Source: a virus. From it: DNA of 64,000 bases. Positions within the stretch are counted from its first letter, which is position 1, and every line of letters begins with the position of its first letter. A model generated the notes under the pieces. It was not told where the DNA came from and did not search any database. It was given only the letters and a program-made list of their open reading frames with translations. The stretch lies in UHGV virus genome UHGV-1519562; one strand, given 5' to 3'. Made by a program: the position numbers and the translations under genes. Positions 12,322 to 28,395 of this stretch are shown here, in pieces.

Positions 12322-12339
12322 AGCAAAGAAAGCTAGTCA

Positions 12340-14627: not shown

Positions 14628-14677
14628 GCAGAACCATTTTCTTTTTTTATTTTATAAATAAATAAATGAAAAAGGTA

Positions 14678-14706
14678 TTGACATTCTGGTTGAAGTATGG
14701 TATACT
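14678..14706 (+). promoter_or_regulatory. sigma-70-type promoter (TTGACA N17 TATACT)
   Basis: TTGACA at 14678-14683, 17-nt spacer, TATACT at 14701-14706, followed by AAGGAGG and ATG 14734. Confidence 0.6.
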
Positions 14707-14733
14707 ATAAATAACAAAAGGAGGAAAGATCAA

Positions 14734-14937: not shown

Positions 14938-15164
14938 AAGAGTTGTACATGATGTATAATAAACGCTATGCAACAGGTATAAGTTTTTATACAAATTATG
15001 AAACTGCTTTGTTAGCAAGATACATTGCTTGTATAAAGATATCTAAACATGAAAAAGACAATGTAATGACAGAGTTTAGCACAAAAGAAGTAAGACAAAA
15101 ATATTGTAAAGATTGGTTTAACATTCTTAATATTAAACAGTTGATGTTGGTAGGAAGGAGATGA
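14934..15164 (+). CDS. hypothetical protein
   Basis: 76-aa ORF overlapping previous stop (ATGA). Confidence 0.5.
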   Translation: MKELYMMYNKRYATGISFYTNYETALLARYIACIKISKHEKDNVMTEFSTKEVRQKYCKDWFNILNIKQLMLVGRR

Positions 15165-15331
15165 AAAACTTCATCTCTTTCCTTTTGTTTAACATACTTG
15201 TTATAAACGAATGTCTTCGTTTTACAAGGCAACTTTCCGAATCAGTATACCACAAAGTCTGCTCAAAATCAATAGTCAAAATAGCTAAATTTAGAGGGAG
15301 AATTGGGATCCCGAATTGTGCAGTATGCCTA

Positions 15332-15360
15332 TTGACCTATTGCGGCAAGTGTGTTATTAT
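15332..15360 (+). promoter_or_regulatory. sigma-70-type promoter (TTGACC N17 TATTAT, extended -10)
   Basis: TTGACC 15332-15337, TG at 15352-15353, TATTAT 15355-15360; drives the gene at 15391. Confidence 0.55.
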
Positions 15361-15390
15361 ATAATTACAAAAGGAAAGGGGATAAAACAA

Positions 15391-15576
15391 ATGAAGAACA
15401 TCAAGAAGATCATTGGTGTCAAGATGGACAAAGCTAACAAGGCGATCCTTGACAAGTGGAAGGAATGGATCAAAGAAGAGGGCCGCGATGAAACCAGTAA
15501 GAATGACTTCGCTAACTATTACGCCAACTCTTATGAAGAGTATCAGCAGATTTGGGAAGTGGTTGAATGTTTGTAA
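15391..15576 (+). CDS. hypothetical protein
   Basis: ATG 15391 after AAAGGAAAGGGG; track ORF started further upstream. Confidence 0.5.
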   Translation: MKNIKKIIGVKMDKANKAILDKWKEWIKEEGRDETSKNDFANYYANSYEEYQQIWEVVECL

Positions 15577-15583
15577 AAAAGTC

Positions 15584-15612
15584 TTGACAAGAAGCTCAGT
15601 CTGTGGTATAAT
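15584..15612 (+). promoter_or_regulatory. sigma-70-type promoter (TTGACA N17 TATAAT)
   Basis: TTGACA 15584-15589, TGG-TATAAT 15607-15612. Confidence 0.6.
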
Positions 15613-15642
15613 AAGACCATAACAAAAGAAAGGATGATTTTT

Positions 15643-16008
15643 ATGTTGAAAAAGACAGTCTACTTCTGTGAGTATTGCAGTGAGGTTTTTGAGGACTATG
15701 ACAGCTGCAACTTGCACGAGATGGAAGAAATGGCGAAGCGTTGTGAGGATAGCTTCAAGCTGTATGATAAGCTCGGCGAAGTCAAGCTCAACCTTAAGCT
15801 AATCCTGCACCTATTATTGCTATCTTGTGCGATGGTAATAAAGAAGCCGTTGAATTGCTCAAGCGCTATTTCATTAGCTTCGACCATAAAGCCCCTTCTC
15901 TTGCTCCGGGAGAAGAAGCCCTCTTGGTGCTCAATGAACGCACTGGTAACTGGTGCAATATTGATGAAGCCATTCAACAGCTTCAAGATTTGTTCTAAAC
16001 AGCAATGA
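15643..16008 (+). CDS. hypothetical protein, possibly frameshifted
   Basis: N-terminal CEYC...C zinc-finger-like start; the C-terminal half reads more protein-like in another frame ending about 16000. Confidence 0.4.
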   Translation: MLKKTVYFCEYCSEVFEDYDSCNLHEMEEMAKRCEDSFKLYDKLGEVKLNLKLILHLLLLSCAMVIKKPLNCSSAISLASTIKPLLLLREKKPSWCSMNALVTGAILMKPFNSFKICSKQQ

Positions 16009-16149
16009 AAAAGGAAAGTTTTGCGGCCTTCCTTTTTCTTTTATTTGTATTGTGTAAGTTTTTATTCTTAATTTGTGCATTTTTACCTATTGACATCTTC
16101 CCAAAATTATGTTATTATATAATCAAGATAAAGAAAGGGGAAACAAAAG

Positions 16150-16482
16150 ATGATTAACAAGGAACTGTTCGACAGCCGGTACACCACAACCTACTATGAA
16201 AGCGCTTATGTGCTTCACGATGGAGACTTGACTCTCTACTATCCCAACTGCGGTTATGACCCTGAGAAAATCATGGTCTGGAAGATTACTGCTGAGGATT
16301 ACCGCTTTTATGGCAAAGGCGCTCTGAAAGAACTGCTGGAAGTTCTTTACAAGGAAGCTGCTCCTGAGTTGGTGGCTCTGGTTGATAGCAAACTCCGATT
16401 GGCAACTAACGACGAGGAATGTGCTACGCTTGTTAAGCACAAGTATCCCAACGACAAACAGCGCTACATTGACATGTGGTAA
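16150..16482 (+). CDS. hypothetical protein
   Basis: 110-aa ORF, promoter at 16087-16125 and GGGG RBS. Confidence 0.55.
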   Translation: MINKELFDSRYTTTYYESAYVLHDGDLTLYYPNCGYDPEKIMVWKITAEDYRFYGKGALKELLEVLYKEAAPELVALVDSKLRLATNDEECATLVKHKYPNDKQRYIDMW

Positions 16483-16503
16483 AAAGTAAAGGAGCTGATT
16501 AGA

Positions 16504-16725
16504 ATGATAACAATCTTTCACAAAGCAGGTATTGCTTTCAGGGGAGAATATCTCCGGGAAGCTTGCAGGAAGAACTACGATTGGCTTACTTTAATGTATG
16601 CCGTTGAAGATTATAACCGCGCTGTGAAGCGTTACTACAAGTATGTTTCTCGTCACCACGCAGTTATCCTTAACAAATATCCTTCTGGCGATGTTATCGC
16701 TCTTGAAGAAGGAGTAATTCTATAA
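16504..16725 (+). CDS. hypothetical protein
   Basis: 73-aa ORF with AAAGGAG RBS. Confidence 0.55.
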   Translation: MITIFHKAGIAFRGEYLREACRKNYDWLTLMYAVEDYNRAVKRYYKYVSRHHAVILNKYPSGDVIALEEGVIL

Positions 16726-16752
16726 GGGCCGCAAGGCCCTTTTTCTTTTTTG
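16724..16752 (+). terminator. intrinsic terminator
   Basis: GGGCCGCAAGGCCC hairpin followed by a T-run. Confidence 0.7.
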
Positions 16753-16860
16753 CTATATGCTTATATAGTGAAACTTCTAGGCTTCTAGCGAAAAAAAAAT
16801 AAATAAAAATTTTTTTGTTTAATTTACCTATTGACACCAAAGAAAAAGTATGGTATAATA

Positions 16861-16935
16861 ATTGCGGCGGCGCGCACACGACCATGGCTTTCCAATGCGC
16901 GCCGAAATTCTGTCAATACGCAAATTGCACAAAAA
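16861..16935 (+). other. GC-rich conserved element (family copy 1), transcribed leader
   Basis: GCGGCGGCGCGC...GCGCGCCGAAATT...TGTCAAT...TTGCACAAAAATTT starts right after the -10 of the promoter at 16835-16860; related copies at 19706, 21781, 23741, 25961, 63421. Confidence 0.5.
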
Positions 16936-17092
16936 TTTAGAGGAAAGTTTGGTGATTTTGCCCAGAAGTATTCATCCCGAAATGGTATTTGTTTATAAAA
17001 AGTATAGCGGCAAAACATTATCAAAATTGATTATTGAATTTCTTAAAAAATTTTGTTATAATAATTACAGAAAACAAAAGGAGGTCAAAAGT

Positions 17093-17254
17093 ATGGCTGA
17101 ATACCGTGACTGGCTGGTAGTTTTCCCCAATGGTGGGCAGATACATTTTGATAACAAGGGTATCGCAATGCAGAACGCAACCCGCAAGAAAGGCTTTGTC
17201 TATGAGTGTCATCTGGAAGAGAATGGGAATGAAACTCTCATTCATATCTTTTGA
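17093..17254 (+). CDS. hypothetical protein
   Basis: ATG 17093 after AAGGAGG; the track ORF 16862-17254 upstream part overlaps the GC element and is probably not coding. Confidence 0.5.
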   Translation: MAEYRDWLVVFPNGGQIHFDNKGIAMQNATRKKGFVYECHLEENGNETLIHIF

Positions 17255-17269
17255 TAGGAGGTATTGCGT

Positions 17270-17449
17270 ATGAAGCAGACTTATTCTATCTATCATGCAG
17301 GCGATGAAGAAATTATCGGGCCTTTTGATTCCTTTTCATTGGCAGAGGATTTCTTTCATAGGTTAGCTCAGTATGCTACTACAATGTATTACTTGGTAGA
17401 TGATTCTACTGGTGAAATTCTTCTTGATATTGAAGAAATTAAGGCTTGA
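17270..17449 (+). CDS. hypothetical protein
   Basis: ATG 17270 after TAGGAGG. Confidence 0.5.
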   Translation: MKQTYSIYHAGDEEIIGPFDSFSLAEDFFHRLAQYATTMYYLVDDSTGEILLDIEEIKA

Positions 17450-17473
17450 CATTTGGGCCTTACCGTGGTATAA
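17445..17473 (+). promoter_or_regulatory. sigma-70-type promoter (TTGACA N17 TATAAT)
   Basis: TTGACA 17445-17450, TGG-TATAAT 17468-17473. Confidence 0.6.
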
Positions 17474-17507
17474 TTACCATAGAAACAAAGGAAAGAGGTT
17501 GATACTT

Positions 17508-17963
17508 ATGACTGACAAAATGTTGGCTTTTGATATGGACGGCACTATTGCTGACCTGTATGGGGTTAATGGTTGGCTGTCTAAGCTGCGGAAGGAAGAT
17601 GCAAGCCCTTACCTGGAAGCTAAACCCATGTGGGATGTGGATAAGCTCAACGAGCTTATCAATAAACTAAAGCAGGCTGGTTGGGAGATTGCAATCATCA
17701 CTTGGCTTTCTAAAGAAAGCAGCCCTGAGTATGCAAAGACTGTGCGAGAAGCTAAAAAGGCTTGGCTCTTGAAATGGGGTTTCCCCTATGACCACTTTCA
17801 TGGTCTAAAGTATGGAGCCACTAAAGCGGATGCTGTTCGTAGAAAAGCATCTAAGGCAATTCTTATTGATGATAATAAGAAAGTTCGTGACAGTTGGCAT
17901 TTAGGAGAAACTGTTAATCCTGAAACTTGTAACATCATTGATTTTTTGGCTTCCCTGCTTTAA
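17508..17963 (+). CDS. HAD-superfamily phosphatase / nucleotidase-like
   Basis: FDMDGT motif I (DxDGT) near the N-terminus; ATG 17508 after GAAAGAGG. Confidence 0.6.
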   Translation: MTDKMLAFDMDGTIADLYGVNGWLSKLRKEDASPYLEAKPMWDVDKLNELINKLKQAGWEIAIITWLSKESSPEYAKTVREAKKAWLLKWGFPYDHFHGLKYGATKADAVRRKASKAILIDDNKKVRDSWHLGETVNPETCNIIDFLASLL

Positions 17964-17983
17964 GCAGGGAGTCAAAAAAGTTC

Positions 17984-18012
17984 TTGACAAATGAGAAAAA
18001 ATCTGGTATAAT
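17984..18012 (+). promoter_or_regulatory. sigma-70-type promoter (TTGACA N17 TATAAT)
   Basis: TTGACA 17984-17989, TGG-TATAAT 18007-18012, conserved leader ACAGAAATTAAGAAAGAGG. Confidence 0.6.
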
Positions 18013-18045
18013 GAGTACAGAAATTAAGAAAGAGGTAGATGCAAC

Positions 18046-18741
18046 ATGAGTATTGACAAGCGCAGACATTACGTTCTGCTTCTGGACACTGAGACAGCAA
18101 ACACCATCACTGACCAAAAAGGCCGATTAGACATGACCTCAGTTCTTGTCTATGATTGCGGGTGGTGTGTTATGGACACAAGAGGAAATATCTATAAGGA
18201 ACAATCCTTTGTTAATCGAGATATTTTCTTTGATGAAAGTGAGCTTATGAAATCCGCCTACTACGCGGAAAAGATTCCCCAGTATCTGGAAGATATTCGA
18301 CAGGGCATCCGACAAGTAGCTAACACTTACCAGATTCGACAGACTATGCTTGCAGACATGGCAGAATATGGTATTACAGAAGTAGTTGCCCACAATGCAA
18401 GATTCGACCTGAACGCATTGAATTTACTTCAACGCTGGACTACCAAAAGTAAATACCGCTATTGGTTCCCCTATGGTACCGATTTTTGGGATACTCTCAA
18501 AATGGCAAGAGATGTTATTCTAAAGATGCCTACCTATAAAAGGTTCTGTGAACAACACGGTTTTTTAACCAAAACTGGTAAACTCTCAGCAACAGCAGAA
18601 AATCTGTATAGATTCATCACCAAAGACCCTACTTTTCAGGAAGAACATAAAGGTCTTGACGATGTGCGGATTGAGCGGGAGATTATGATTTACTGCTATC
18701 GGCAAAAGAAGAAAATGCGGAAAAAACTTTTTGAAAATTAA
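18046..18741 (+). CDS. DEDDh 3'-5' exonuclease (DnaQ-like)
   Basis: Exo I LLLDTETA, Exo II VAHNARFDLN, Exo III HKGLDDV. Confidence 0.7.
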   Translation: MSIDKRRHYVLLLDTETANTITDQKGRLDMTSVLVYDCGWCVMDTRGNIYKEQSFVNRDIFFDESELMKSAYYAEKIPQYLEDIRQGIRQVANTYQIRQTMLADMAEYGITEVVAHNARFDLNALNLLQRWTTKSKYRYWFPYGTDFWDTLKMARDVILKMPTYKRFCEQHGFLTKTGKLSATAENLYRFITKDPTFQEEHKGLDDVRIEREIMIYCYRQKKKMRKKLFEN

Positions 18742-18862
18742 AAAACCGCTTGACAAAACAAAAGGAAAATGATATAATATAAGAGAAGTGAGGGAAAGAA
18801 AACCCTCTCCACTTCCTTAACAATTAGGGTAGCGACCTACCGCACAGAAAGGAATTGATATT

Positions 18863-19219
18863 ATGACTAACGAGAAGAAGATTACTAACAAGGGCGCCCT
18901 TCAGTATGTTCTGGACAACTGCGAGATTCCTGCCGACGTTCGTGCCAAGATTGAGATTCTGCTCCATCAGCAAGAGAACAAGAGCCGTGGTAGTGGTAAG
19001 CCTACTGCAACTCAGACTGAGAACGCACGTCTGATTGAAGTGATTGCCGACACTCTGCCCAAGGGCGAGGCTTTCACCATCTCCGACATTACCAAGACCA
19101 TTCCTGAGCTGAACGGCTTTACCCCTCAGAAGGTTGGCCCCATGCTCAAGAAGCTGGTTGAAACTGGCCGAGCCACCCGTGACACTAACAAGGGCAAGGC
19201 ATATTATACTATGGTGTGA
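18863..19219 (+). CDS. hypothetical protein, paralog of 22200-22616
   Basis: 118 aa; shares ...TENxxxxxxIAxxL...IPELxxxTPQ(K/R)(V/I)xPM.K.LV..G.A..DT.KG.A.. with the ORF at 22200; GC-richer codon usage. Confidence 0.6.
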   Translation: MTNEKKITNKGALQYVLDNCEIPADVRAKIEILLHQQENKSRGSGKPTATQTENARLIEVIADTLPKGEAFTISDITKTIPELNGFTPQKVGPMLKKLVETGRATRDTNKGKAYYTMV

Positions 19220-19278
19220 TAATTGAATAAAGAGGGGCATTAAGCCCCTCTTTATTTTCTCAAAAAGGATGGTGTTTA

Positions 19279-19641
19279 ATGATAGATGAAGCTAGGGTTA
19301 AACATCTTCAAAAGGTGTTAGACCTTGATAGAAAACAAGCTTTAGCGGTTATTGCCGATGATGAAGCAATAGATAAAGGTGCAGACCTTTTCCCACTTAC
19401 TGATGAACAAAAGAAAGTAGAAAAGAAAATGCGGTTATCCGGCAAAGAGAAAGGCAAGTACACTATGAATGCTCCCCGACAGCGCAAGGTTGACAATGAC
19501 AAACATCGCTTGATTGAGATTATTGCGGAATCTCTTGAACAGCTTGAAATTGAAACTACCATCAATAACCCAGAGCGAGAAATTGAGATAGTTTTTAATG
19601 AAAGACGTTTCAAAATTACATTAAGCGCTCCTAGAAAATAA
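19279..19641 (+). CDS. hypothetical protein, paralog of 22647-23030
   Basis: 120 aa; similar to the second gene of the 22.2-23.0 kb cassette (LTDEQKKV..K.. ; NPER.I...). Confidence 0.55.
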   Translation: MIDEARVKHLQKVLDLDRKQALAVIADDEAIDKGADLFPLTDEQKKVEKKMRLSGKEKGKYTMNAPRQRKVDNDKHRLIEIIAESLEQLEIETTINNPEREIEIVFNERRFKITLSAPRK

Positions 19642-19644
19642 TAA

Positions 19645-19684
19645 CAAAACCGGCTTATTTTTTATAAGCCGGTTTTGTTTTTTG
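19645..19684 (+). terminator. intrinsic terminator
   Basis: AAAACCGGCTTAT...ATAAGCCGGTTTT hairpin followed by a T-run. Confidence 0.7.
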
Positions 19685-19705
19685 TCTAATACTTCTTAAT
19701 GACAA

Positions 19706-19800
19706 ATGTTTGGCGGCCCGCGCATGGTCAAGCGCTGCCGCATTTCAATTATACCAGGTAATCCGACTTTTGTCAATGGGCAAACCGCACAATTATTTAA
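19706..19800 (+). other. GC-rich conserved element (family copy 2)
   Basis: TTTGGCGGCCCGCG...GCGCTGCCGCATTTCAATTATACC...TTTTGTCAAT...CCGCACAA; near-paralog of 21781-21880. Confidence 0.5.
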
Positions 19801-19894
19801 CCTTTTGTTTTCCCAAAATTGGTGATTCTACCTATTGATTTTTTTATTAAAATTTTATATAATATAATTGTTCCAAGGGAAAGGAGAAACAAAA

Positions 19895-20089
19895 ATGAAG
19901 ATTAATTACAAATCTTTCAGCGTGGAAGTTTTTGGTGAGAACATTTGGGGCCAAACCTATCTGAACAGAGTGGGCTTTGATTCTGAGGAAGAAGCCGATA
20001 AGTTTATTGAGTCTCTGGAAGAGGAAGAAGGAGTTTATTCGGCAATTAAAATTGTAAATACAAGTTATAATTTCAGAAAAAACCCTTGA
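19895..20089 (+). CDS. hypothetical protein
   Basis: ATG 19895 after AAAGGAG. Confidence 0.5.
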   Translation: MKINYKSFSVEVFGENIWGQTYLNRVGFDSEEEADKFIESLEEEEGVYSAIKIVNTSYNFRKNP

Positions 20090-20146
20090 CAAACAAACCA
20101 AGACGTGTTATAATAAATACAGAAATTAAGAAAGAGGTTGACAATT

Positions 20147-20257
20147 ATGAATGAAAATAAGACTACTCCTTGGTATATCTATCAGCCGGGCAAATGGAGC
20201 TACTTCTTATTTCTAGTTCCCTTGATTCTTCTCATTCTTATCTTTATAAGTACCTAA
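20147..20257 (+). CDS. small membrane peptide (36 aa)
   Basis: promoter TTGACA...TATAAT at 20086-20114, AAGAAAGAGG RBS, hydrophobic C-terminal half; below the ORF-track size cutoff. Confidence 0.4.
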   Translation: MNENKTTPWYIYQPGKWSYFLFLVPLILLILIFIST

Positions 20258-20348
20258 AAGATACTTATAAAAATCTGGATTGTCTTCAAAAAGGCTTGAC
20301 AAACGTCAAGCCGAGTGGTATAATAATAACAGAAAGAGGTTGATATAA

Positions 20349-20492
20349 ATGATTTCTACTATTGCTCTGGCTTCCCTGGCTGCCATTATGATGGTGAAGG
20401 TGTTCGTTGCGGTTGAGCGTGAGGATTACCGCAAAATGTTTGTCAGCGGATTTGAGTTTGCTCTTCTGCTTCTGACTTTAGCTAATATTTAA
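20349..20492 (+). CDS. small membrane protein (47 aa)
   Basis: promoter at 20293-20321, AGAAAGAGG RBS, two hydrophobic segments. Confidence 0.4.
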   Translation: MISTIALASLAAIMMVKVFVAVEREDYRKMFVSGFEFALLLLTLANI

Positions 20493-20505
20493 GGAGGTAA
20501 ATATA

Positions 20506-20754
20506 ATGAGAATTTATTCCATTAAACATCTGTTCGACAAAGAAGTTGCTGGTTTTTATCGAGAAATGAAAGAAAGCGTTGAAACAAAAGAAGAAGTAGA
20601 AAATGCTGTTTATCTGGTAACGGGTATGCAGGTTATGGCAAGTATTATTGCCGAAGGAAGTGATGAAGAGGTTCTTGCCATTGAACATGAAACTTGGGAT
20701 TATTGGGTTCCAAAGTTTAAGAAACTTCTGGAAAATCTTCCTGAAAAGGCTTGA
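20506..20754 (+). CDS. hypothetical protein
   Basis: 82-aa ORF, AAGGAGG RBS. Confidence 0.55.
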   Translation: MRIYSIKHLFDKEVAGFYREMKESVETKEEVENAVYLVTGMQVMASIIAEGSDEEVLAIEHETWDYWVPKFKKLLENLPEKA

Positions 20755-20810
20755 CATACGTCAAGTTCTATGATATAATAAAGCCATAATAAAGAAAGGA
20801 AGTCGATACT

Positions 20811-21011
20811 ATGACTAAAGAGGAATTCTTAGACACTTTGCAGGAGGTCGGCTATGAATGGAGCAGAACGCTCAATGAGCACAAGTATGACTACTCGGAT
20901 TTCGAGTGGAAGATGCTTGGTTGGTTAGCTGGTGAATTGATTGACCATTTCGACCAAGCAATTGATTCAATTCGTGATGAACTTCAGGAGGAGGAGGAAG
21001 AGGAAGAATGA
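20811..21011 (+). CDS. small acidic protein
   Basis: 66 aa, poly-Glu C-terminus, own promoter at 20749-20777. Confidence 0.5.
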   Translation: MTKEEFLDTLQEVGYEWSRTLNEHKYDYSDFEWKMLGWLAGELIDHFDQAIDSIRDELQEEEEEEE

Positions 21012-21256
21012 GAATGATAGAAAAGATTGAGAGATTCTTTCTTCTTGATGAAGAAGAAAGAACAATTCTCAAGAAAGCTGGAAGCATTTTGTATGACATG
21101 GGAGAAGCTATTGATAGCTCTGGAAGAGTTTCCTTATTCTATGCAAAATTTACTGAGCCGATTGAAAAAATCCGAAACTACGATGAAGGAAACTTTTATG
21201 ACCTTTCAGATTTATTGACTGTTCTTTCTAAAAAAGAAAGAATTGATATTGAATAA
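21008..21256 (+). CDS. hypothetical protein
   Basis: 82-aa ORF overlapping previous stop. Confidence 0.5.
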   Translation: MRMIEKIERFFLLDEEERTILKKAGSILYDMGEAIDSSGRVSLFYAKFTEPIEKIRNYDEGNFYDLSDLLTVLSKKERIDIE

Positions 21257-21271
21257 AGAAAGGATAGATAC

Positions 21272-21430
21272 ATGGAAAAGTATTGTTTTGTAGTTATGAC
21301 TACTGACGAAGGTATTGATGCTCCAGAGATGGTTTATCTTAATAAAGAAGCGGCTATAAAAGCGGCTGAGGCTCTTCAAAACGAAAGAGAAGAAGATTGT
21401 TGGGTAGAAAAAGTACAGTTTATTAAATGA
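21272..21430 (+). CDS. small hypothetical protein (52 aa)
   Basis: ATG 21272 after AAAGGA; ends just before the terminator at 21438. Confidence 0.4.
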   Translation: MEKYCFVVMTTDEGIDAPEMVYLNKEAAIKAAEALQNEREEDCWVEKVQFIK

Positions 21431-21437
21431 TATTAAA

Positions 21438-21466
21438 AATAAGGGCCTTTGGCCCTTATTTTTTAC
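21438..21466 (+). terminator. intrinsic terminator
   Basis: AATAAGGGCC TTT GGCCCTTATT hairpin followed by a T-run. Confidence 0.7.
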
Positions 21467-21520
21467 TTGACAGATTTTTCTTTCTATGTTATAATAACAA
21501 TAGAAAAGGAGTGAAGCAAA

Positions 21521-21724
21521 ATGACAGATTTTGCAAGAGCTGAAATTCTTCTTAAAGCTTTACAGGAAGCAGGAAGATATATGCGGAAATATTTACCCGC
21601 AGAAATGCCTCTGGGTGAAGATGCCGATATTACAAGATACTGTTTGATAAATGGTAATCAAGACCCAGAAGGCTCTAAGTTTGTAGAATACTTCATTCTT
21701 AAAGCATTTGACAGTTACAAGTAA
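21521..21724 (+). CDS. hypothetical protein
   Basis: 67-aa ORF with AAAAGGAG RBS, followed by terminator hairpin GGGCTAAAAGCCC. Confidence 0.55.
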   Translation: MTDFARAEILLKALQEAGRYMRKYLPAEMPLGEDADITRYCLINGNQDPEGSKFVEYFILKAFDSYK

Positions 21725-21780
21725 GGGCTAAAAGCCCTTACTTTTTTATTTTTATATTTGTTATAAACAAAAGTCAAGTG

Positions 21781-21880
21781 ATAGCAAAGTTTGGCGGCGC
21801 GTTGATGGCTGACATGCGCCGCAATTTAATTATACCCCAAGCCACGCCTTTTGTCAAGAGTTAAACTGCACAAAATCTAT
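21781..21880 (+). other. GC-rich conserved element (family copy 3)
   Basis: TTTGGCGGCGCG...GCGCCGCAATTTAATTATACC...TTTTGTCAAG...CTGCACAA; preceded by conserved TTGTTATAAACAAAAGT block shared with copy 4. Confidence 0.5.
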
Positions 21881-22199
21881 TTGAGGAAAATCCCGCTTTT
21901 TGTATAATTTGCCTATTGCAATTTGGGTGAAATCTGATATAATAAATAATGTCAGGAGGGAGTAGCCCAAGAAATCCTAGGGCGGCCGACCTGTGAGAAA
22001 GTATAGGAAGTAAACGAAATACATCAAGTGGTAAGTCTTATATCATGTGGTAATTGTTATTGCCCAACATGCTCTGGAAGCCGTAAATCTTGTGAAAAGT
22101 TTGCGAAACCTCTTGACAAACCCCAAGAAACGTGCTATAATAAGCATGTAATCAAGAGAAGGACAAACTCTTAAAAACCAGAAAGCGAGATAGGTGTTT

Positions 22200-22616
22200 A
22201 TGGAAAATACTAACAAGAGAATTACTAAGCGTGAGCGTTTCCAGTCTCTGATTGAGCTGGTGGAACTGTGCGAAGGCCGTGAAGACGAAGGCTTTGACTT
22301 TGAGGGTCTGACCGATTTCCTCTCCAACGAGATTCGCCTGCTGGAAGCTAAGAAGGGTTCCAATTCCCGCAAGCAGACTGTTCGCCAGACTGAGAATGAG
22401 CATTTTAAGGCTCTGATTGCTGAGCAGTTGACCGAAGAGGGCATGACCATTGCAATGCTCCGCAAGGCCATTCCTGAACTGGAAGATTTAACTCCCCAGC
22501 GTATTGCCCCTATGTGCAAGGCTCTTGTTTCTGAGGGCATTGCTTACAAGGATACCCACAAAGGTATTGCCCACTTTTACAAGGCGCAGGCCGTGGTAGA
22601 AGAGGAAGAGGGCTAA
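22200..22616 (+). CDS. hypothetical protein, paralog of 18863-19219
   Basis: ATG 22200; shared motifs with 18863 ORF; GC-richer codon usage. Confidence 0.6.
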   Translation: MENTNKRITKRERFQSLIELVELCEGREDEGFDFEGLTDFLSNEIRLLEAKKGSNSRKQTVRQTENEHFKALIAEQLTEEGMTIAMLRKAIPELEDLTPQRIAPMCKALVSEGIAYKDTHKGIAHFYKAQAVVEEEEG

Positions 22617-22646
22617 GGCCCTCTTCCCTAGAGGGGAGGTATATTT

Positions 22647-23030
22647 TTGGACAAAGCAAAAGAAGCAATCGCAAGAATCCAAGCCGGCATCAAGTGCAGT
22701 TATGAAAAAGCAGTAGAAATCTATAAGGCAGATTGCGAGGTTGATAAAGGCATCCCGCACGAATGGGATTTGACCGAGGAACAGCAAAAGGTAGCAAAGA
22801 AATACACCATTACCGGACAACACACCAAAAAGCATGACCGCAAGACCCCTATTAAAAGAGAAAGGAAGGAAAACCCCACTAAGGCAAATTTGATTGCGGA
22901 ACTTGCAGGTTTTCTTGAATCTTTGGGGATTTGTGACGTAAAAATTGCAAATCCTGAGCGACAGATTGCTTTTTCTGTTGATAATAACGCCTTTGAGCTG
23001 ACTTTAGTTCAGAAAAGGGCCAAAAAGTAA
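22647..23030 (+). CDS. hypothetical protein, paralog of 19279-19641
   Basis: TTG start after GAGGGGAGG; shared LTEEQQKV..K.. and NPER.I motifs. Confidence 0.5.
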   Translation: MDKAKEAIARIQAGIKCSYEKAVEIYKADCEVDKGIPHEWDLTEEQQKVAKKYTITGQHTKKHDRKTPIKRERKENPTKANLIAELAGFLESLGICDVKIANPERQIAFSVDNNAFELTLVQKRAKK

Positions 23031-23087
23031 AGTTTTTAGCCCTTTTCACTTAAAAAAGAGCTAATTTTGACGAAAAAGGTGATGTAA

Positions 23088-23432
23088 ATGCAACAAAAGA
23101 AAGAGTATTTGTATGTAGGCCACTATTTTGATATAGAGGGTAACTACATTCTTAAAATAGGTACTACTAATGATTTAGCCAGGAGACAGCAAGAGCATAC
23201 CAGAAATTATAAGCATTCACCTAAGTTTACTATGCCGAAATCCGCAAAGTTTGTCTATGATTGGTATCTGCCTTTGTCTAAATATTCGACTTTGCGGTAT
23301 GAGGATAAGAATCGTGCGGCATGGCAGGAATCTTCTATCGGTGAATTTGTCCGCAATGACAGATTTTGCTGTAAGCAAAAGCCCAAGAAAGTAAAGGTTA
23401 CTATCCGCAAAACCTATGAGATCGAGCTATAA
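23088..23432 (+). CDS. GIY-YIG-like (T5orf172-type) domain protein
   Basis: LYVGHY...(11 aa)...ILKIGTTNDLARRQQEH resembles the GIY-YIG/T5orf172 signature. Confidence 0.55.
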   Translation: MQQKKEYLYVGHYFDIEGNYILKIGTTNDLARRQQEHTRNYKHSPKFTMPKSAKFVYDWYLPLSKYSTLRYEDKNRAAWQESSIGEFVRNDRFCCKQKPKKVKVTIRKTYEIEL

Positions 23433-23445
23433 GGAGGAAGAGAAC

Positions 23446-23667
23446 ATGATTGTTATTAAAAAGCAATGCGAGGTTCGCTTATCCCAAGAAGAAATTGATC
23501 GTCTTGAGCAAGCCTCTGACATTCTTAATCAAATTTGGGAGGTGATGTCTGCTAGTAGTTATATTGGCAAATACGAAACCATTGATACCGCAAAAGTGGG
23601 AGAAGCATCAGATATTTTGCAAAACTTAGCAGAGATCGGCGAAAATATCGTAATTGAAGATGCTTGA
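23446..23667 (+). CDS. hypothetical protein
   Basis: ATG 23446 after AAGGAGG. Confidence 0.5.
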   Translation: MIVIKKQCEVRLSQEEIDRLEQASDILNQIWEVMSASSYIGKYETIDTAKVGEASDILQNLAEIGENIVIEDA

Positions 23668-23740
23668 TTATTAAAGGATAGTGGTTATTAACCACTATCC
23701 TTTTTTATCCCTATACTTGTTATAAGCAAAAGTAAAGTAA

Positions 23741-23815
23741 TAACAAAACTCGGCGGGCCGCGCTTGGTGGATGCGGCCCGAATTCGCGTCAATATACATT
23801 TTCCACAATTTTTCT
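23741..23815 (+). other. GC-rich conserved element (family copy 4)
   Basis: CGGCGGGCCGCG...GCGGCCCGAATTCGCGTCAAT...CCACAATTT after a terminator hairpin; shares upstream block with copy 3. Confidence 0.5.
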
Positions 23816-23987
23816 GCTTTTGATTTGTACAATTTTACTTATTGACATTTTCCCAAAATTATGTTATTATATAATCACAAAAGGAAAGGAGATTTAAAAA
23901 TTTCAAAAAAAAAATAAAAAAAGGTCTTGACAAACCAGGGCAAAGATGCTATAATGAATACAGAAATTAAGGAAAGAGGTTGATAGT

Positions 23988-24263
23988 ATGAATGAACGCA
24001 GAGACTTCATCGCAAAGAACTGGGGTGAGGATGTTCTTGAAGCTATTGATAGCTGTGAGCCGTTAAACATTACCTTTGGTCAGTTTTTGGACAAGTGCGT
24101 TGCTTGCGGTGGCAACTGGGACGGTATGCTTCTAACTGGCCTGAAGAAGTTGCGGCCTGAGATTTGGGAAGCCATTCCCCAAAATATGGGTCTTTATGCT
24201 TGGCAGTGCATCTGCAACACTTTAATTCTTGCTGGTGTAGTTATGGAAGAAGAAGAGGGCTAA
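23988..24263 (+). CDS. hypothetical protein
   Basis: 91-aa ORF, promoter 23925-23955, AAAGAGG RBS. Confidence 0.55.
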   Translation: MNERRDFIAKNWGEDVLEAIDSCEPLNITFGQFLDKCVACGGNWDGMLLTGLKKLRPEIWEAIPQNMGLYAWQCICNTLILAGVVMEEEEG

Positions 24264-24296
24264 AAAGCCCTCTTCCATAGAGAAAGGAAGGTAGAA

Positions 24297-24578
24297 ATGG
24301 AAATTAGAAAACCTACGAACTGGTTGAATGCTAAAGGGATGCTTGACAAAACACTACAAGCAAGATCTACAGTAATCACTGAAGCCCTTGGGCGAATTAT
24401 GTTTAATCTTCTAAATGCCGCGGAAGAAGGAAAATTTGCTACTACTATTAATCTTCGAGAAGATACAAAAATTATTACTCAAATACTTGAGGAAGCAGGC
24501 TATAAGGTTCAATTTCTTAAACCAAATGGTGAATACTCACAATATATTGTTTGCTGGGAAAAGGAGGATGAAGAATAA
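24297..24578 (+). CDS. hypothetical protein
   Basis: 93-aa ORF with AAAGGAAGG RBS. Confidence 0.55.
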   Translation: MEIRKPTNWLNAKGMLDKTLQARSTVITEALGRIMFNLLNAAEEGKFATTINLREDTKIITQILEEAGYKVQFLKPNGEYSQYIVCWEKEDEE

Positions 24579-24772
24579 TGATGAAAATCAAAATTGTTGA
24601 CCGCTATAATGGCGATTTCGCGAAGTTTGATTCTTTGCAGAAAGCCTATGACTACTTCATGGACTATGACAAAGAATGTGAGGGAGATTGGTGGCCATTG
24701 ATTACTATTGATGGAGCTTGGGTTCCTCTGGAAGAGTTCTTTGTGATGTGTAAAGAAAGGGGGTGTAAGTAA
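24578..24772 (+). CDS. hypothetical protein (truncated paralog follows at 24781-24885)
   Basis: 64 aa; next small ORF starts with the same MMKIKI... N-terminus. Confidence 0.5.
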   Translation: MMKIKIVDRYNGDFAKFDSLQKAYDYFMDYDKECEGDWWPLITIDGAWVPLEEFFVMCKERGCK

Positions 24773-24963
24773 TGATGAAAATCAAAATTACTGAACTGTA
24801 CAAAGATGATGTGGCGGAATTTAAGTTTCCGCCAGAAGCATGGGCTTATTTTTGCTATCGGGAAAAGGAATCTAAAGGAAAATGATTCCCATTGATATTC
24901 ATCAATAGAAAGATGATATCACCTGAAACGTTGCATAAAATGTGTAGAAAGGTGGGTATTTAA

Positions 24964-25431
24964 TTGTCTTTGCTCTTGTTATTCATTGGTCTTTCTATTG
25001 CCAATGTGGTTTTTTCGACAATCAAAAGCATTGTAACTATTAACGGCACACCATTTTCCGCAAGCATGATTTCTGCTCTGTACTATGGTTATTATAACAT
25101 AGTTCTTATTTACACAGTGGCGGATTTCCCTTTGTGGCAGAAGGTATTAGTTACCTTTGGCTGTAATCTGGTTGGCGTGTATGCGGTTAAGTGGGCGGAA
25201 GCAAAAGGAAGAAAAGAAAAGTTGTGGCGAATTGAGGTTACTGTCCCCGGTGAATTTACAAAACAACTTCACGAAAGACTAAACCCAATTCCGCACAACT
25301 ATATTGAAAATGTAGGTAAATATTCAATTTTTAATATTTACTGTGGTACACAAATGGAGAGTAGTCAAGTCAAGAAAATTTTGGTGGATTACAATGCCAA
25401 ATACTTTGTGACAGAAACTAAAGAACTCTGA
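24964..25431 (+). CDS. membrane protein (hypothetical)
   Basis: TTG start 10 nt after AGGTGG; two or three N-terminal hydrophobic helices. Confidence 0.5.
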   Translation: MSLLLLFIGLSIANVVFSTIKSIVTINGTPFSASMISALYYGYYNIVLIYTVADFPLWQKVLVTFGCNLVGVYAVKWAEAKGRKEKLWRIEVTVPGEFTKQLHERLNPIPHNYIENVGKYSIFNIYCGTQMESSQVKKILVDYNAKYFVTETKEL

Positions 25432-25714
25432 GAATACTCAGAGTTCTTTTTTGTTTTTTCTAAAAAATTATGTTATAATATATATAGAAATTAAGGAAAG
25501 GAGCTTTTCTAATGACCTGTGAATTATTAAAGGCACTTGCGGTGATTATTGAATACTGTTTAAAGCAGGATAATTACAAAGTTTGTGTTATGCGTGATTT
25601 CTGTTCTAAGATGCCTTGTGAGTGGTAAATTACTTTAAAGATTTTAGAGATAGAAAGGCCCATTTTAGGGTCGAAATTTCGCACGTCTAGGTCATCAAAA
25701 AAAAATATCTGGAT

Positions 25715-25915
25715 ATGTTGAAAACTGAATTTGCCAGAAAGCTGGACTCGACTGGTCGATTAGTTATTCCTTCTAAGCTAAGAGATTATCTAGGAATGGA
25801 AACCGGCCAGTTGTTTACTTTTTATGTTCAAAAAGAAGAAAATGGAGATGTGTATTTGTGTGTGAAGTGTCCTAGTAATAAAATAAAATTTACTTTTGGT
25901 GAAAATGCCGATTGA
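25715..25915 (+). CDS. AbrB/MazE/SpoVT-family DNA-binding protein (putative regulator)
   Basis: RKLDSTGRLVIPSKLRDYLGMETGQ matches the swapped-hairpin AbrB-N signature. Confidence 0.6.
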   Translation: MLKTEFARKLDSTGRLVIPSKLRDYLGMETGQLFTFYVQKEENGDVYLCVKCPSNKIKFTFGENAD

Positions 25916-25960
25916 CATAAGGCTGGTTTTATGGTATACTATATATAAGGAGTGGCGGGC

Positions 25961-26090
25961 TGTGGACAGTGGTCACAGCCCGAAATCCCCTTTCCACTAG
26001 CATATGGCGATTTTTCTAGACTTCTAGCGACCCTTCATATGGCCGGGGTTTTTCCCGAAAGTGGCTCACCCGCTCGGAAAAAATTTTTTT
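25961..26090 (+). ncRNA. candidate small structured RNA (GC-rich element family, long copy)
   Basis: starts right after promoter TTGACA(25904)...TATACT; GGGCTGTGG...CACAGCCCGAAAT stem, CTTCTAGCGA motif shared with other copies, ends in an A/T run; no convincing ORF. Confidence 0.4.
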
Positions 26091-26149
26091 TAATTTGTCA
26101 AGTCAAAGTCCGCATTTGACTTTTTAAAAATTTAAGGCATAAAAAAAAA

Positions 26150-26200
26150 TCAACTTGACTTTTCAAAAAACAAAAGAAAAAAATAAAAGTCAAGTTGATT
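26150..26200. promoter_or_regulatory. operator-like perfect inverted repeat (15-bp arms, TTGACT/AGTCAA half-sites)
   Basis: ATCAACTTGACTTTT ... AAAAGTCAAGTTGAT; further AGTCAAAG/TTTGACT repeats just upstream. Confidence 0.5.
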
Positions 26201-26293
26201 AATAATTAAAATTATTATATAATATTTATATAAACAAAAGGAAAAAGAAAAGAGAAGCACATATGCCCGCTCGGCTTGTTGAAAGTGGGAGTG

Positions 26294-26926
26294 TTATTTA
26301 CACTTCCATTTTTTAACTAAAACCGGTATATCATTATACTTTTCTTTAAATCTATTCATTGCGTTCTTGTAGAACTGCAGTTCGGTAGAGATATCTTCTC
26401 CTTGCGCTTGGCGGTAAAAAGCATTGGCTGCTTCTTCTTCACCAATCTTCTCTTCAGAGAGAATTGCGCGCCACTCAGTAACGATTGCTTCATCCATAAC
26501 CTCATAGGTTGAGTAAAAACACCAATACTGATTTCCATCGCTAATGCCAAATTTATTAAATGGCTCTTTGATGTATCTTTCAGTTACAGCTTTATAGGAT
26601 GTATGATTATATTTTTCATAACCAAAATCCGCAATAGCATCTCTAGCGATTTTACTCTTACTATTAGGTTTAAATTCAGTACCTAAAGCGGCAACAGTGA
26701 ATTTTTCGTAATCTTTTTTCTTTTGTTTAGTTTGGGCAGTTCTTAAAGAAGGGATTATATCGGGCATTTCACCTTTAATTTCATAAGTATATCTGCCTGT
26801 ACTGGACTTAGTTTCAGTTATATCCATATATTCTTGAAGATGAAGCATTAATTCATCATGTTTGTTAGCCCAAACATTATGTGAGATAGAATATCTTTTA
26901 TTAAGTTCTTTTCTAGTAATTATCAT
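26294..26926 (-). CDS. hypothetical protein on opposite strand (candidate regulator at a divergent control region)
   Basis: 210-aa ORF with AAGGAG RBS (complement of 26933-26938); only minus-strand gene inside the 10.7-63.9 kb plus-strand block. Confidence 0.6.
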   Translation of the reverse strand: MIITRKELNKRYSISHNVWANKHDELMLHLQEYMDITETKSSTGRYTYEIKGEMPDIIPSLRTAQTKQKKKDYEKFTVAALGTEFKPNSKSKIARDAIADFGYEKYNHTSYKAVTERYIKEPFNKFGISDGNQYWCFYSTYEVMDEAIVTEWRAILSEEKIGEEEAANAFYRQAQGEDISTELQFYKNAMNRFKEKYNDIPVLVKKWKCK

Positions 26927-27026
26927 TTTTGTTAAATCTCCTTAAATAAAATTTATAGAATTTTCATTCTACTACTAATATATAAATTTTAAATAAGAAA
27001 GATTTAACAGAAATGATCTAAAAAAA

Positions 27027-27094
27027 TTGATCTACTTTTTGTGTATGTGGTTATATATATTGGTATACACAAAAAATAGATCAAAAATCTTGTA
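27027..27094. promoter_or_regulatory. large palindrome (20-bp arms, 1 mismatch) in divergent intergenic region
   Basis: TTGATCTACTTTTTGTGTAT ... ATACACAAAAAATAGATCAA separated by 28 nt. Confidence 0.5.
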
Positions 27095-27337
27095 CTCATT
27101 GATGAACAGTACATTAAAACTGAACTAAAATTAGCTTCATTTTTATCCTACCACTTACACAAAAATGAAGCTAATTTTTTTTAAATACTTGTCTACCAAA
27201 ATTTACTCTAGTATATATACACAGTAAATTTTCGTAGATAACTTTGCCTTCTCAGATAATAAGTACACAATATTTAATTAAAAAAATGAATTTCTATTAT
27301 TTATTTCACTTCACTACTCTACTTATAATAACGTAAA

Positions 27338-27405
27338 TAAGTCATCCTTTGGATGACTTATTTACTAAGGAATAATAAATCGACCTTTGGTCGATTTATT
27401 ATTCC
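27338..27405. promoter_or_regulatory. two consecutive perfect 12-bp hairpins (insulator/terminator-like)
   Basis: AATAAGTCATCC TTT GGATGACTTATT and AATAAATCGACC TTT GGTCGATTTATT. Confidence 0.5.
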
Positions 27406-27514
27406 ATTAACTTTTCTCTCTCACTTTCAATTTTCCCTTCAGAAATTGTGAGTTCCATTCCCCAATTTTTTCCAAATGAAAATTCAAAATAACCACTCCC
27501 CTATATCCGCAATT

Positions 27515-27552
27515 GAAAATATTAAAAAATTATTATATAATATATATAGAAA
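27515..27552 (+). promoter_or_regulatory. AT-rich conserved promoter/leader (second promoter class)
   Basis: TATTATATAATATATATAGAAAAACAAAAGGAAAGG; TATAAT at 27536-27541; same block recurs about 20 times between 25.4 and 63.6 kb. Confidence 0.55.
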
Positions 27553-27578
27553 AACAAAAGGAAAGGAATTAAAAATTT

Positions 27579-28115
27579 ATGTCTACTTATAAGATTAATG
27601 ATTGCTGTAACGCCTCTACTGCCGAGCTTAACTCCTCTTGTAACTGCAAGACTACTATGAAGTTTGAGGATTATATCATGGATGAGCTGCGCAAGGGCAA
27701 GTCTATGGATGAGATTATGAAGTATATCTCTGAGCGAGTCAATGCCGTGGAGTCTACTTTTAAGGCAGAGCAGAATAAGAAGAAGAGTTTTTGGTTGGTG
27801 AAGACTCCTGTTGAGGGTGATAGAGATTTCATTTTTGGTAATCTGCATGTAAAGATTAATGATGCTCTTGTTCATTTGAGTAATGGTAAGATTACTACTG
27901 AGGATTTTATTATTCTTTTTATTGAGGGTCTTTATCAGATTGCTCCTGCTATGCGCCCTATGCTTGATGAGATTAGTCTTGATGATGATAGTATTAGTCT
28001 TTTGACTGAAAGCATGGATAAGGTGAATAAGCTTTTCTCTGTTGCTAAGGCTTTTAGCAATGAGATTGATGATGACGCAGAAAGAATTAATAAGTTTTTG
28101 GATTCTCTACTGTAA
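27579..28115 (+). CDS. hypothetical protein
   Basis: 178-aa ORF followed by terminator hairpin GGGGATAACCCC. Confidence 0.6.
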   Translation: MSTYKINDCCNASTAELNSSCNCKTTMKFEDYIMDELRKGKSMDEIMKYISERVNAVESTFKAEQNKKKSFWLVKTPVEGDRDFIFGNLHVKINDALVHLSNGKITTEDFIILFIEGLYQIAPAMRPMLDEISLDDDSISLLTESMDKVNKLFSVAKAFSNEIDDDAERINKFLDSLL

Positions 28116-28225: not shown

Positions 28226-28395
28226 GAGCACATCTCTATTTTTAATTATTTTATCTATATTTTATCTATATTTTAATTATTTTTAATAAAAAGCACATCT
28301 CTATTTTTAATTATTTTTAATTATTTTATCTCTATTTTTAATTATTTTAAGATATTTTAATTATTTTTAATAAAAAGCACATCTCTCTAATTCGT
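28226..28395. repeat. AT-rich tandem direct repeats (about 2.3 copies of a 65-85 bp unit)
   Basis: AGCACATCTCTATTTTTAATTATT recurs at about 28226, 28292, 28376; TTTTAATTATTTTTAATAAAA recurs at about 28271 and 28356. Confidence 0.6.

Follow-up and report, generated by a model that had tools for sequence, protein, structure and literature searches.

A dispersed non-coding cassette and a conserved gene-palindrome layout at a predicted junction of early transcription units in a large gut phage

The PeSL (promoter-early stem-loop) cassettes of T4-like myoviruses are ~100 bp long. Each is made up of a consensus sigma-70 promoter, an upstream region rich in A/T and a stem-loop rich in GC, and the relative positions of these parts vary. 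The cassettes recur among orphan early genes, and promotion, termination and recombination have all been demonstrated for them (Arbiol et al. 2010, PMC2839356; Comeau et al. 2014, PMC4122927). Here we describe a composite cassette of ~125 nt, together with a conserved minus-strand gene for a protein of 210 amino acids (aa), in positions 25715-27578 of a 64,000-nt stretch of the virus genome UHGV-1519562 (the whole stretch is hereafter called the window), which is a low-GC (~31%) segment of a siphophage-like genome of ~140 kb. Two other kinds of described system are relevant to this locus, namely the 5'-terminal stem-loops that stabilise mRNAs in Firmicutes (the ermC and aprE leaders and the early RNA of phage SP82), and convergent-promoter or antisense modules such as pR/pL of coliphage 186 and the enterococcal prgQ/prgX. 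To our knowledge, none of the gut phages of ~140 kb that are related to phAss-1 has been cultured, and we know of no description of their regulation.

We read the stretch as a junction between early transcription units at the right-hand edge of a block of small early genes, that is, as a mosaic of separate signals and not a single switch. The probability that we assign to this explanation as a whole, with the cassette, the terminators, the antisense transcription and DNA binding by the winged-helix protein taken jointly, is roughly 0.5. An earlier note on the same DNA had taken the segment for one genetic switch or replication-control locus; the segment is dense in control signals, as that note held, but no integrated switch is built around its AbrB-like protein. 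All of the features that the note listed are present at or near the positions it gave, with small corrections to arms and lengths. What is directly established is how the region is built, which copies belong to the cassette family, their strand bias and spacing, the covariation of their hairpins, and the conserved layout of gene, palindrome and convergent cassette.

A dispersed hairpin-and-box cassette

The GC-rich element at 25948-26074 (plus strand) is one copy, denoted C, of a dispersed non-coding cassette of ~125 nt. It follows the promoter P1 (TTGACA-17-TGgTATACT, 25912-25940, plus strand; an 11/12 match with an extended −10, TG), which is predicted to drive it, and the stretch after P1 has 55% GC in a genome of ~31% GC. 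At loci with homologues of the 210-aa protein, a GC-rich non-coding stretch is nearly always found past the 3' end of the gene, on the opposite strand. Paralogues were found through two constant features, a hairpin starting G(G/A)CGG and a TTTCCC(G/A)AAA box ~100 nt later, and a covariance model (R1) was built from 19 hand-picked copies. R1 gave 56 matches (E<1) in the window and 22 related phage loci (related loci carry L-numbers below, and L001 is a near-twin of the window, ~95% identical); after a pattern scan of IMG/VR, it gave 54 further matches (E<=0.01) in 35 more phage loci. The related IMG/VR and metagenome contigs are 130-195 kb long, and the comparison covered the flanks of the loci on them. 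In total there are ~100 unique copies, at densities elsewhere of up to 7 cassettes per 9 kb, and all copies within a locus lie on the same strand in 39 of 39 loci. A search of 596 Gb of bacterial genomes with the DNA pattern of the cassette returned about the number of matches expected by chance, and R1 recognised 0 of the 20 loci tested there; the cassette appears to be phage-specific. Rfam at its gathering score gave no match between 25.4 and 27.7 kb (a permissive E-value search gave sub-threshold chance matches only), and ARAGORN reported no tRNA at the GC-rich element.

At least five co-oriented copies are present in the window, all of them intergenic, on the plus strand and 2-2.8 kb apart between 16.8 and 26.1 kb, among open reading frames (ORFs) without a family match. 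Copy D (16831-16994, with the R1 match at 16860; 32.6 bits) has its own perfect P1 at 16831-16859. Copy A (19706-19832) scores 69.7 bits, copy E (21787-21912) is weak (19.8 bits, E=0.13), and copy B (23746-23872; 76.2 bits), a paralogue of C, carries its box within the spacer of a promoter at 23842-23870. Copy C itself (63.5 bits, E=1.4e-9) is identical in L001. Within copies A and E, on a minus strand otherwise free of genes, lie perfect 12/12 sigma-70-type promoters (19776-19748 and 21857-21829) that point into the respective hairpins; they are the only perfect minus-strand promoters in the window besides those at the point of early/late divergence. Leftward transcription from copy A would pass the hairpin and then the bidirectional terminator of the upstream gene, for a predicted RNA of ~100 nt. 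Weak partial matches to the cassette occur at 63429-63526 and 16047-16118 (16-17 bits, E 0.35-0.6), and a promoter at 16090-16118 with a TTCCCAAAA box in its spacer is nearly identical to the 3' end of copy B.

CGG/CCG closes the hairpin, for which the median number of pairs is 10 and the median dG is -16.5 kcal/mol (86 unique hairpins); in copy C it is formed by CGGGCTGTG..CACAGCCCG at 25956-25982. Set A4, which is independent, has 96.4% of its cells paired and 57 cells with changes on both sides, compared to 18 in shuffles (0 of 500 as high), and set A3 agrees with A4. G-U pairs account for 3% of the 923 hairpin pairs, vs. 7.8% in the tRNAs of the window, and this scarcity indicates that the hairpin is a true DNA palindrome, foldable on either strand. 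The spacer of ~70 nt that follows contains 22% C and 12.8% G, against a local strand bias of 15% C and 19% G, with more C than G after the hairpin in 44 of 51 copies; in copy C it holds a direct repeat of CATATGGC, at 26002 and 26037. The TTYCCCRAAA box (counted as TTYCCYRWAA for the spacing; TTTCCCGAAA at 26051-26060 in copy C) starts at a median of 69 nt after the hairpin, with an interquartile range of 69-69 (n=71). This spacing was already present in the hand-picked set and is exact in copies A and C despite their unrelated intervening sequences. In 14 of the 23 copies with a strong downstream promoter, the next −35 begins 12-13 nt past the start of the box, so that the box covers about −48 to −38, where an UP element would lie.

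Strong promoters adjoin the cassette at three positions. An upstream promoter matching at >=11/12 positions, with its −10 ending <=12 nt before the hairpin, is found in 22 of 100 unique copies, including C and D; an antisense promoter of the same quality, inside the cassette to the right of the hairpin and pointing back into it, in 27 of 100; and a downstream promoter within 110 nt, again at >=11/12, in 33 of 100. In copies A and E, the antisense −10 ends 7 nt from the base of the hairpin, and six cassette copies contain face-to-face promoters ~45 bp apart.

The earlier note had described a promoter-driven, GC-rich structured element after the AbrB-like gene. The promoter and the GC-richness stand, whereas the structure is weak, given that the fold of the whole element has z=-1.8 and only the 5' hairpin at 25956-25982 is conserved. 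A structured RNA of ~130 nt was rejected on this fold score and on RNAalifold, which found no pairs in 19 mixed copies and the 5' hairpin only in 10 C-type copies. A protein-coding ORF at 25952-26119 was likewise rejected, the conserved nucleotides falling in differing frames among copies; there is no frame preference, with hairpin-to-box distances modulo 3 distributed as 35/27/15 and open frames as 26/32/27 of 77. The GGCGG hairpin is unlikely to be an intrinsic terminator, as it is followed by A(A)TTT(T)C, with 3-4 U only, vs. 6-10 U in the canonical terminators of this phage. Compared by eye, CATATGGC and TTTCCCGAAA did not fit the consensus sequences of sigma-54, ECF-sigma or sporulation-sigma promoters.

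In the mechanism that we propose, P1 fires into copy C, as one of the cassettes that occur throughout the early regions of this phage group, and the GC hairpin would stand at, or a few bases from, the point where an adjoining consensus promoter, on either strand, starts transcription. There, the hairpin may form a stem-loop at the 5' terminus that keeps the transcript stable or insulated, and the box, normally 2-3 nt upstream of the −35 of the next promoter, may serve as its UP element. The second promoter of copy C (P2) has decayed, leaving no functional downstream promoter, and the copy C unit would therefore yield only a short non-coding RNA. This RNA would end at the small hairpin AAGTCAAA / TTTGACTT followed by T5 (26100-26125, plus strand, with a predicted 8-bp stem at 26100-26122), the probable terminator of the P1 transcript, for an RNA of ~175 nt.

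The promoters around copy C fall into two classes. Class I comprises 17 plus-strand promoters at 10766-25940 (TTGACA-17-TGnTATAAT, 11-12 of 12 positions), most of which have a ribosome-binding site and a small ORF within ~30 nt downstream, and P1 is the last of them in the early block. Class II begins at 25464 and takes over rightwards; its promoters have a TTGAAA or TTGATT −35, a 17-nt spacer and TATAAT inside a conserved 43-nt motif, which recurs at 25464, 26208 and 27526 with a fixed downstream ATATATAGAAA and a ribosome-binding site. The promoter of the next plus-strand gene (27579-28115) belongs to this class (TTGAAA-17-TATAAT, 27513-27541, plus strand; 11/12, in the 43-nt motif 27526-27568). 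The segment thus lies at the boundary of two promoter classes, which may reflect two temporal classes.

The conserved minus-strand gene, its palindrome and the opposed promoter

The gene for the 210-aa protein (26294-26926, minus strand) encodes an N-terminal winged helix and a remainder that matches no known fold. Among its 306 homologues none is named, and no homologue was found in INPHARED. The earlier note had observed that the gene is alone on its strand in this block; it is the only credible minus-strand gene between 10.7 and 64 kb. Its candidate promoter is weak (TTTAAA-16-TAGAAT, 26966-26993, minus strand; 9/12), with a −10 that is kept in L001. Upstream lies a palindrome of the form X-ATTTTTGTGTAT-(18 nt, TATA-rich)-ATACACAAAAAT-X' (27020-27090; the repeat at 27027-27084 has 33-nt arms that are 82% complementary), the core of which, TTTTTGTGTAT-N18-ATACACAAAAA, occurs once in the window vs. 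0 expected, and a third half-site is found at 27155-27165.

This palindrome is linked to the gene across lineages. Most of the homologous loci have a palindrome of this kind ahead of the gene. The same architecture occurs 60-200 nt upstream of the homologues in L001, L002, L004, L012, L013, L014 and L050, and variant cores (TTTTTGTCATA, TTTTTGTCCCTAT) are present in L008, L011, L020 and L022; the outer arms differ among loci yet stay complementary. In L050, a 178-kb contig in which the protein is ~36% identical to the homologues of the window's protein, the full layout is repeated: the gene has the palindrome upstream and a terminator after it, and both a promoter and a C-type cassette with a perfect P1 are convergent to it. 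Between the window and L001, which are ~95% identical elsewhere, identity breaks inside the palindrome, and 27072-27310 is replaced; in place of these ~240 nt, L001 has two inverted copies of a 68-nt unit (~1130-1325). From this linkage, we suggest that the winged-helix protein probably binds its own upstream palindrome, either as an autoregulator or at an origin-type site. A regulon of half-sites did not emerge in the window, where 10 one-mismatch sites compare with 5.3 expected and exact sites occur at the locus only. In IMG/VR, the strict palindrome pattern was found at 24 loci, of which 2 adjoin a homologue of the gene, showing that the strict pattern alone is not specific. The conserved gene with its palindrome and the convergent cassette makes the protein a candidate regulator, or possibly an origin-binding protein.

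Several relatives (L002 4071-4790, L020 4220-4933 and L024 2215-2907) carry a second gene, which shares its strand with the 210-aa homologue and encodes a protein of ~235 aa with a similar helix-turn-helix-like N-terminus; these genes and the 210-aa gene may form a paralogue family. A 238-aa uncharacterised viral protein is the second-best structural match of the 210-aa model in BFVD (E=1.9e-4). The ATGCGGGA..CCGCAT motifs near the gene in relatives were considered as another RNA and proved to be the starts of a small conserved coding gene.

On the other side of the gene, four copies of (A/C)TTGACTTT occur at 26098-26200, and the terminator of the 210-aa gene is, on our reading, the TTGACT inverted repeat (26141-26200, minus strand), because its perfect 16-bp stem (26148-26163 / 26185-26200, 21-nt loop) is followed on the minus strand by a T-run (26147-26141); canonical terminators also stand right after the stop codons of homologous genes. 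The earlier note had seen this TTGACT/AGTCAA repeat, with arms of 15 bp that are here corrected to 16 nt, and had missed a perfect 18-bp hairpin (27127-27144 / 27161-27178) followed by T8, a predicted intrinsic terminator at 27127-27182 (plus strand). Its interpretation of the repeats as palindromic operators is not supported: the 16-nt and the 18-nt repeat are each a stem with a T-run and read as terminators. The predicted terminators have AT-rich stems, and two of the loops are long (21 and 16 nt).

A class II promoter (TTGATT-17-TATAAT, 26195-26223, plus strand; 10/12, in the 43-nt motif 26208-26250) sits between the stop codon of the 210-aa gene and its terminator and points into the 3' end of the gene. 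Downstream of it come a ribosome-binding site and an ORF of 17 codons (26263-26316, plus strand), and the unit 26195-26316 is kept in L001. Between the window and L001, the mini-ORF has 3 differences, of which 2 change an amino acid and 1 of those 2 is silent in the overlapping 210-aa gene, suggesting that the mini-ORF is probably not selected as a protein. No plus-strand gene other than this antisense unit precedes the 27127-27182 terminator. We propose that an antisense RNA of ~950 nt would run from the class II promoter across the whole 210-aa gene to that terminator and, while class II promoters are active, would lower expression of the gene by collision or pairing. The near-consensus promoter directed into the only minus-strand gene had been noted before; with the plus-strand terminator just beyond the gene, the nucleotide sequence makes antisense transcription likely. 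A convergent class-II-like promoter past the gene is also present in L010, L025 and L050, and ends at a terminator shared with the gene.

Further right, an imperfect inverted repeat with 19-nt arms (27189-27241; 89% complementary), seen in a repeat search and by folding, is followed by two tandem hairpins of 15 pairs (27333-27365) and 17 pairs (27369-27405). To the right of these stand a C-rich tract, which contains an ATTTTCCC motif, and the next class II promoter. One loop base of each tandem hairpin differs in L001, and the hairpins (27333-27405) are probably insulating terminators in a layout that resembles the cassette. These upstream repeats had been described as a 20-bp-arm palindrome and two perfect 12-bp hairpins; all are present, but the palindrome has 33-nt arms and the hairpins have 15 and 17 pairs.

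The AbrB-like gene (25715-25915, plus strand), just ahead of P1, encodes a 66-aa SpoVT/AbrB (MazE/MraZ-like) DNA-binding protein. It matches Pfam MraZ (E=3.3e-5, 24.2 bits; cut-off 23), phrog_4681 (E=4e-8) and the N-domains of AbrB and SpoVT in PDB (E=0.003-0.009; AbrB 1z0r E=0.0027, SpoVT E=0.0075), in agreement with the earlier assignment to the AbrB/MazE family, and Pfam MazE_antitoxin under its cut-off (E=0.004, 17.4 bits vs. 24.7). Among ~20 distinct related loci, homologues occur only in L001/L003 and L025/L026, where they also precede cassettes, and this absence from most related loci identifies the gene, which is real, as an accessory early gene. No link was found between it and the palindromes. 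A MazEF-like type II toxin-antitoxin pair was rejected, as no ORF lies between the gene and the cassette and the neighbouring ORFs have no toxin family match. The likeness to SpoVT/AbrB swapped-hairpin proteins (AbrB, Abh, SpoVT, MazE, MraZ) covers the N-terminal ~45 residues; unlike in those proteins, the C-terminal 20 residues are unique, and no toxin gene adjoins.

Genomic setting and alternative readings

In the window, the late genes (portal, terminase-like and others) are on the minus strand and end at ~10.6 kb; to the right of this point, almost all genes, including 16 tRNA genes, are on the plus strand. The nearest named relative of the portal protein is in the uncultured gut phage phAss-1 (40% identity), followed by the ~140-kb Enterococcus phages EF1/VRE9 (31% identity). 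Phage phAss-1 is siphovirus-like, ~136 kb long and probably infects Clostridia, and it recodes TAG (PMC10607447). Comparison of the region with annotated phages in INPHARED gave no nucleotide match. The early block, which holds a T5 dmp-like nucleotidase and a gene with a T5orf172 domain, looks like the early or host-takeover region of a lytic phage.

Several other genes and repeats of the window were recorded. The products of 17400-17963 (a HAD-type 5'-3' deoxyribonucleotidase or polynucleotide-kinase-like protein, phrog_2643/415) and 23088-23432 (T5orf172-domain protein, PF10544) are reminiscent of T5 pre-early functions. Two adjacent ORFs at 23988-24578 (91 and 93 aa) correspond to one fused ORF of 196 aa in L001 (3652-4242). 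The first tRNA cluster includes a GIY-YIG homing endonuclease gene at 43476-43952 (phrog_5123, E=4e-24). At 44158-44230, ARAGORN reports a tRNA with a four-base 'anticodon' tgaa (8-nt loop) and no amino acid assigned (Rfam tRNA, 51.4 bits), and tRNA genes flank a 39-nt tandem repeat (2.8 copies, 83% matches) at 44737-44852. Directly after a tRNA cluster, 53535-55058 encodes a 507-aa protein matching phrog_850 'RNA-binding protein' (E=5.7e-111) and Pfam DUF2828 and DUF7788; with the RNA ligase encoded at 59510-60787 (phrog_968), it may constitute an RNA repair or quality-control module.

Several observations weigh against the junction reading that we favour, in which we infer all transcript ends, the role of the hairpin, the antisense control and the binding of protein to DNA. 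Every transcript start and end in it is a prediction, and in 42 of 100 cassette copies none of the three positions holds a promoter that matches at >=11/12. The 69-nt spacing is partly an ascertainment effect of the model. A role as a 5' stabiliser leaves the fixed distance to the box unexplained, and the fixed spacing, the CATATGGC direct repeats and the scarcity of G-U pairs would fit a DNA-level platform for proteins equally well. With only 3-4 T after them, the GGCGG hairpins are probably poor terminators, unlike PeSL stem-loops. Finally, the strict antisense form, with the promoter in the 3' untranslated region of the gene, is present only in the window and its near-twin L001.

The cassette might instead act at the level of double-stranded DNA, as a ~125-bp platform where a phage or host protein (e.g., the AbrB-like, the winged-helix or a nucleoid protein) shuts off, activates or insulates strong early promoters, with the GC palindrome as binding site or cruciform. 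The rigid distance from hairpin to box, the near lack of G-U pairs expected of a true DNA palindrome, the conserved linear motifs and direct repeats, the promoters on both strands around the palindrome and the AbrB-like gene directly upstream of cassettes in two lineages are all consistent with this, but apart from CGG/CCG the palindrome varies freely, which is unusual for a sequence-specific operator and typical of structure, and the single-strand orientation in 39 loci favours a directional process, i.e., transcription. Furthermore, the AbrB-like gene is missing from most cassette-carrying phages and the palindrome of the winged-helix gene is unrelated in sequence, and we regard a DNA platform as improbable. 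C-type cassettes could also be genes for a trans-acting small RNA (sRNA), with a P1 RNA of ~150-290 nt that has a 5' hairpin and unpaired C-rich motifs (UUUCCCGAAA, UCCCC) pairing with ribosome-binding sites, rich in G, on mRNAs of the host or the phage; in Firmicutes, RsaE/RoxS are C-rich sRNAs that pair with such sites. C-type copies in the window, L001, L022/23, L030, L050/34/53 and L009 all combine a P1 that is perfect or nearly so with the lack of a usable promoter downstream, their GC content is 55-58% in genomes of ~30% GC, the part after the hairpin is C-rich and G-poor, counter to the local strand bias, and a terminator-like hairpin follows copy C. Against an sRNA, the conserved structure ends with the first hairpin, the fold z-score is a mere -1.8, Rfam gave no match, the conserved motifs are direct repeats (CATATGGC twice), suggesting DNA sites, and most other copies precede a gene, which suggests leaders rather than sRNAs; this interpretation, too, seems unlikely. 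Beyond a PeSL-like pair of terminator and promoter, the ~125-nt cassette could be an undescribed regulatory device of this clade of large gut phages, in which the palindrome at promoter starts, the box 69 nt away and the next promoter form a cis-acting RNA or cruciform that couples successive early units, with the palindrome, winged-helix gene and C-type cassette as its regulator module. Such a device, for which processive antitermination or a supercoil-sensitive relay of promoters while the DNA enters might be the mode of action, is a tentative idea that we consider rather unlikely.

Of the two interpretations in the earlier note, replication control, taken here to include control of a genome end, would make the winged-helix protein an origin-binding initiator, and the palindrome together with an iteron-like array an origin or a terminus-proximal site. 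The array (28227-28385) is AT-rich, with a 65-nt period repeated x1.9 and sub-repeats TATTTTTAAT and CTATATTTTA, and may mark the end of the genome, the boundary of a terminal repeat, an origin or a mere assembly break. The winged helix is the DNA-binding fold of many replication initiators, the gene stays linked to the palindrome in lineages with a protein identity as low as ~36%, iteron-like arrays occur within ~1.3 kb in the window, L001, L002, L019 and L020, and the contigs of L001, L004 and L006 end 1.0-1.5 kb upstream of the gene, at or beside the array; however, the iterons do not keep a constant position relative to the gene, a contig that stops at a repeat can be an artefact of assembly, and the GC skew does not switch here. 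No initiator of a known Rep/DnaA/DnaD-like family was found next to iterons and an AT-rich region, as an iteron origin with a Rep initiator would have, and replication control appears quite doubtful. In a lambda-like bistable switch, the AbrB-like and minus-strand proteins would repress each other via shared palindromic operators. The genes are opposed, both proteins have a DNA-binding fold and there are several palindromes, but the two genes are convergent and not divergent, so that they have no shared promoter region, and the palindromes that separate them can be read as terminators. Most loci in which the rest is kept lack the AbrB-like gene, the GC-rich element is dispersed, with copies 2-9 kb away and in many phages, and the early region looks like that of a lytic phage, with 17 consensus promoters and a dmp-like nucleotidase; a non-exhaustive scan of ~35 ORFs of the window revealed no integrase, repressor or CI-like protein, which also counts against a switch. 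We consider such a switch very improbable.

Comparison with described systems

By itself, the segment overturns nothing known. The cassette model with its strict geometry provides a searchable signature for early units, candidate transcript starts on both strands and likely sites of gene insertion.

Like the 5' stabilisers of Firmicutes, the cassette has a stable hairpin a few nt from a predicted 5' end, strong promoters and a low-GC, Gram-positive-type host; it differs in that half of the copies have no strong adjoining promoter, and its fixed downstream geometry is foreign to the concept. The opposed promoter resembles pR/pL of coliphage 186 and prgQ/prgX, in which a promoter in the 3' region of an opposed gene transcribes across that gene. 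Bistability or the regulators of those systems are not evident here, and the strict layout occurs in this lineage only.

The closest likeness is to PeSL. Both are intergenic composites of ~100 bp with a consensus sigma-70 early promoter (matched here by sequence alone), an A/T-rich segment upstream of the −35 and a GC-rich stem-loop in variable position; both are repeated many times among small orphan early genes; and, as with PeSL, gene content varies among relatives at positions bounded by cassettes. For example, the window has ~2.9 kb of extra genes between the ORF at 22647-23030 and copy C, compared to L002/L010/L011; the single mapped breakpoint between the window and L001 lies in the gene-linked palindrome, not in a cassette. 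In contrast to PeSL, the cassette is found in an unrelated lineage and host group, that of a Clostridia-type gut siphophage; its hairpin lies at the predicted transcript start, on either strand, and has no U-tract, so a role as terminator is unlikely; it is held at a rigid 69 nt from a specific TTYCCCRAAA box; and all copies are strictly co-oriented. If the junction reading holds, PeSL-like composite cassettes arose in a lineage unrelated to T4, suggesting a general solution for many small, insulated early genes run from very strong host-type promoters. The cassette is thus the same in kind as PeSL, an analogue and not a member by descent, because the relatives of its portal protein are phAss-1 (40%) and EF1/VRE9 (31%), not T4-like myoviruses.

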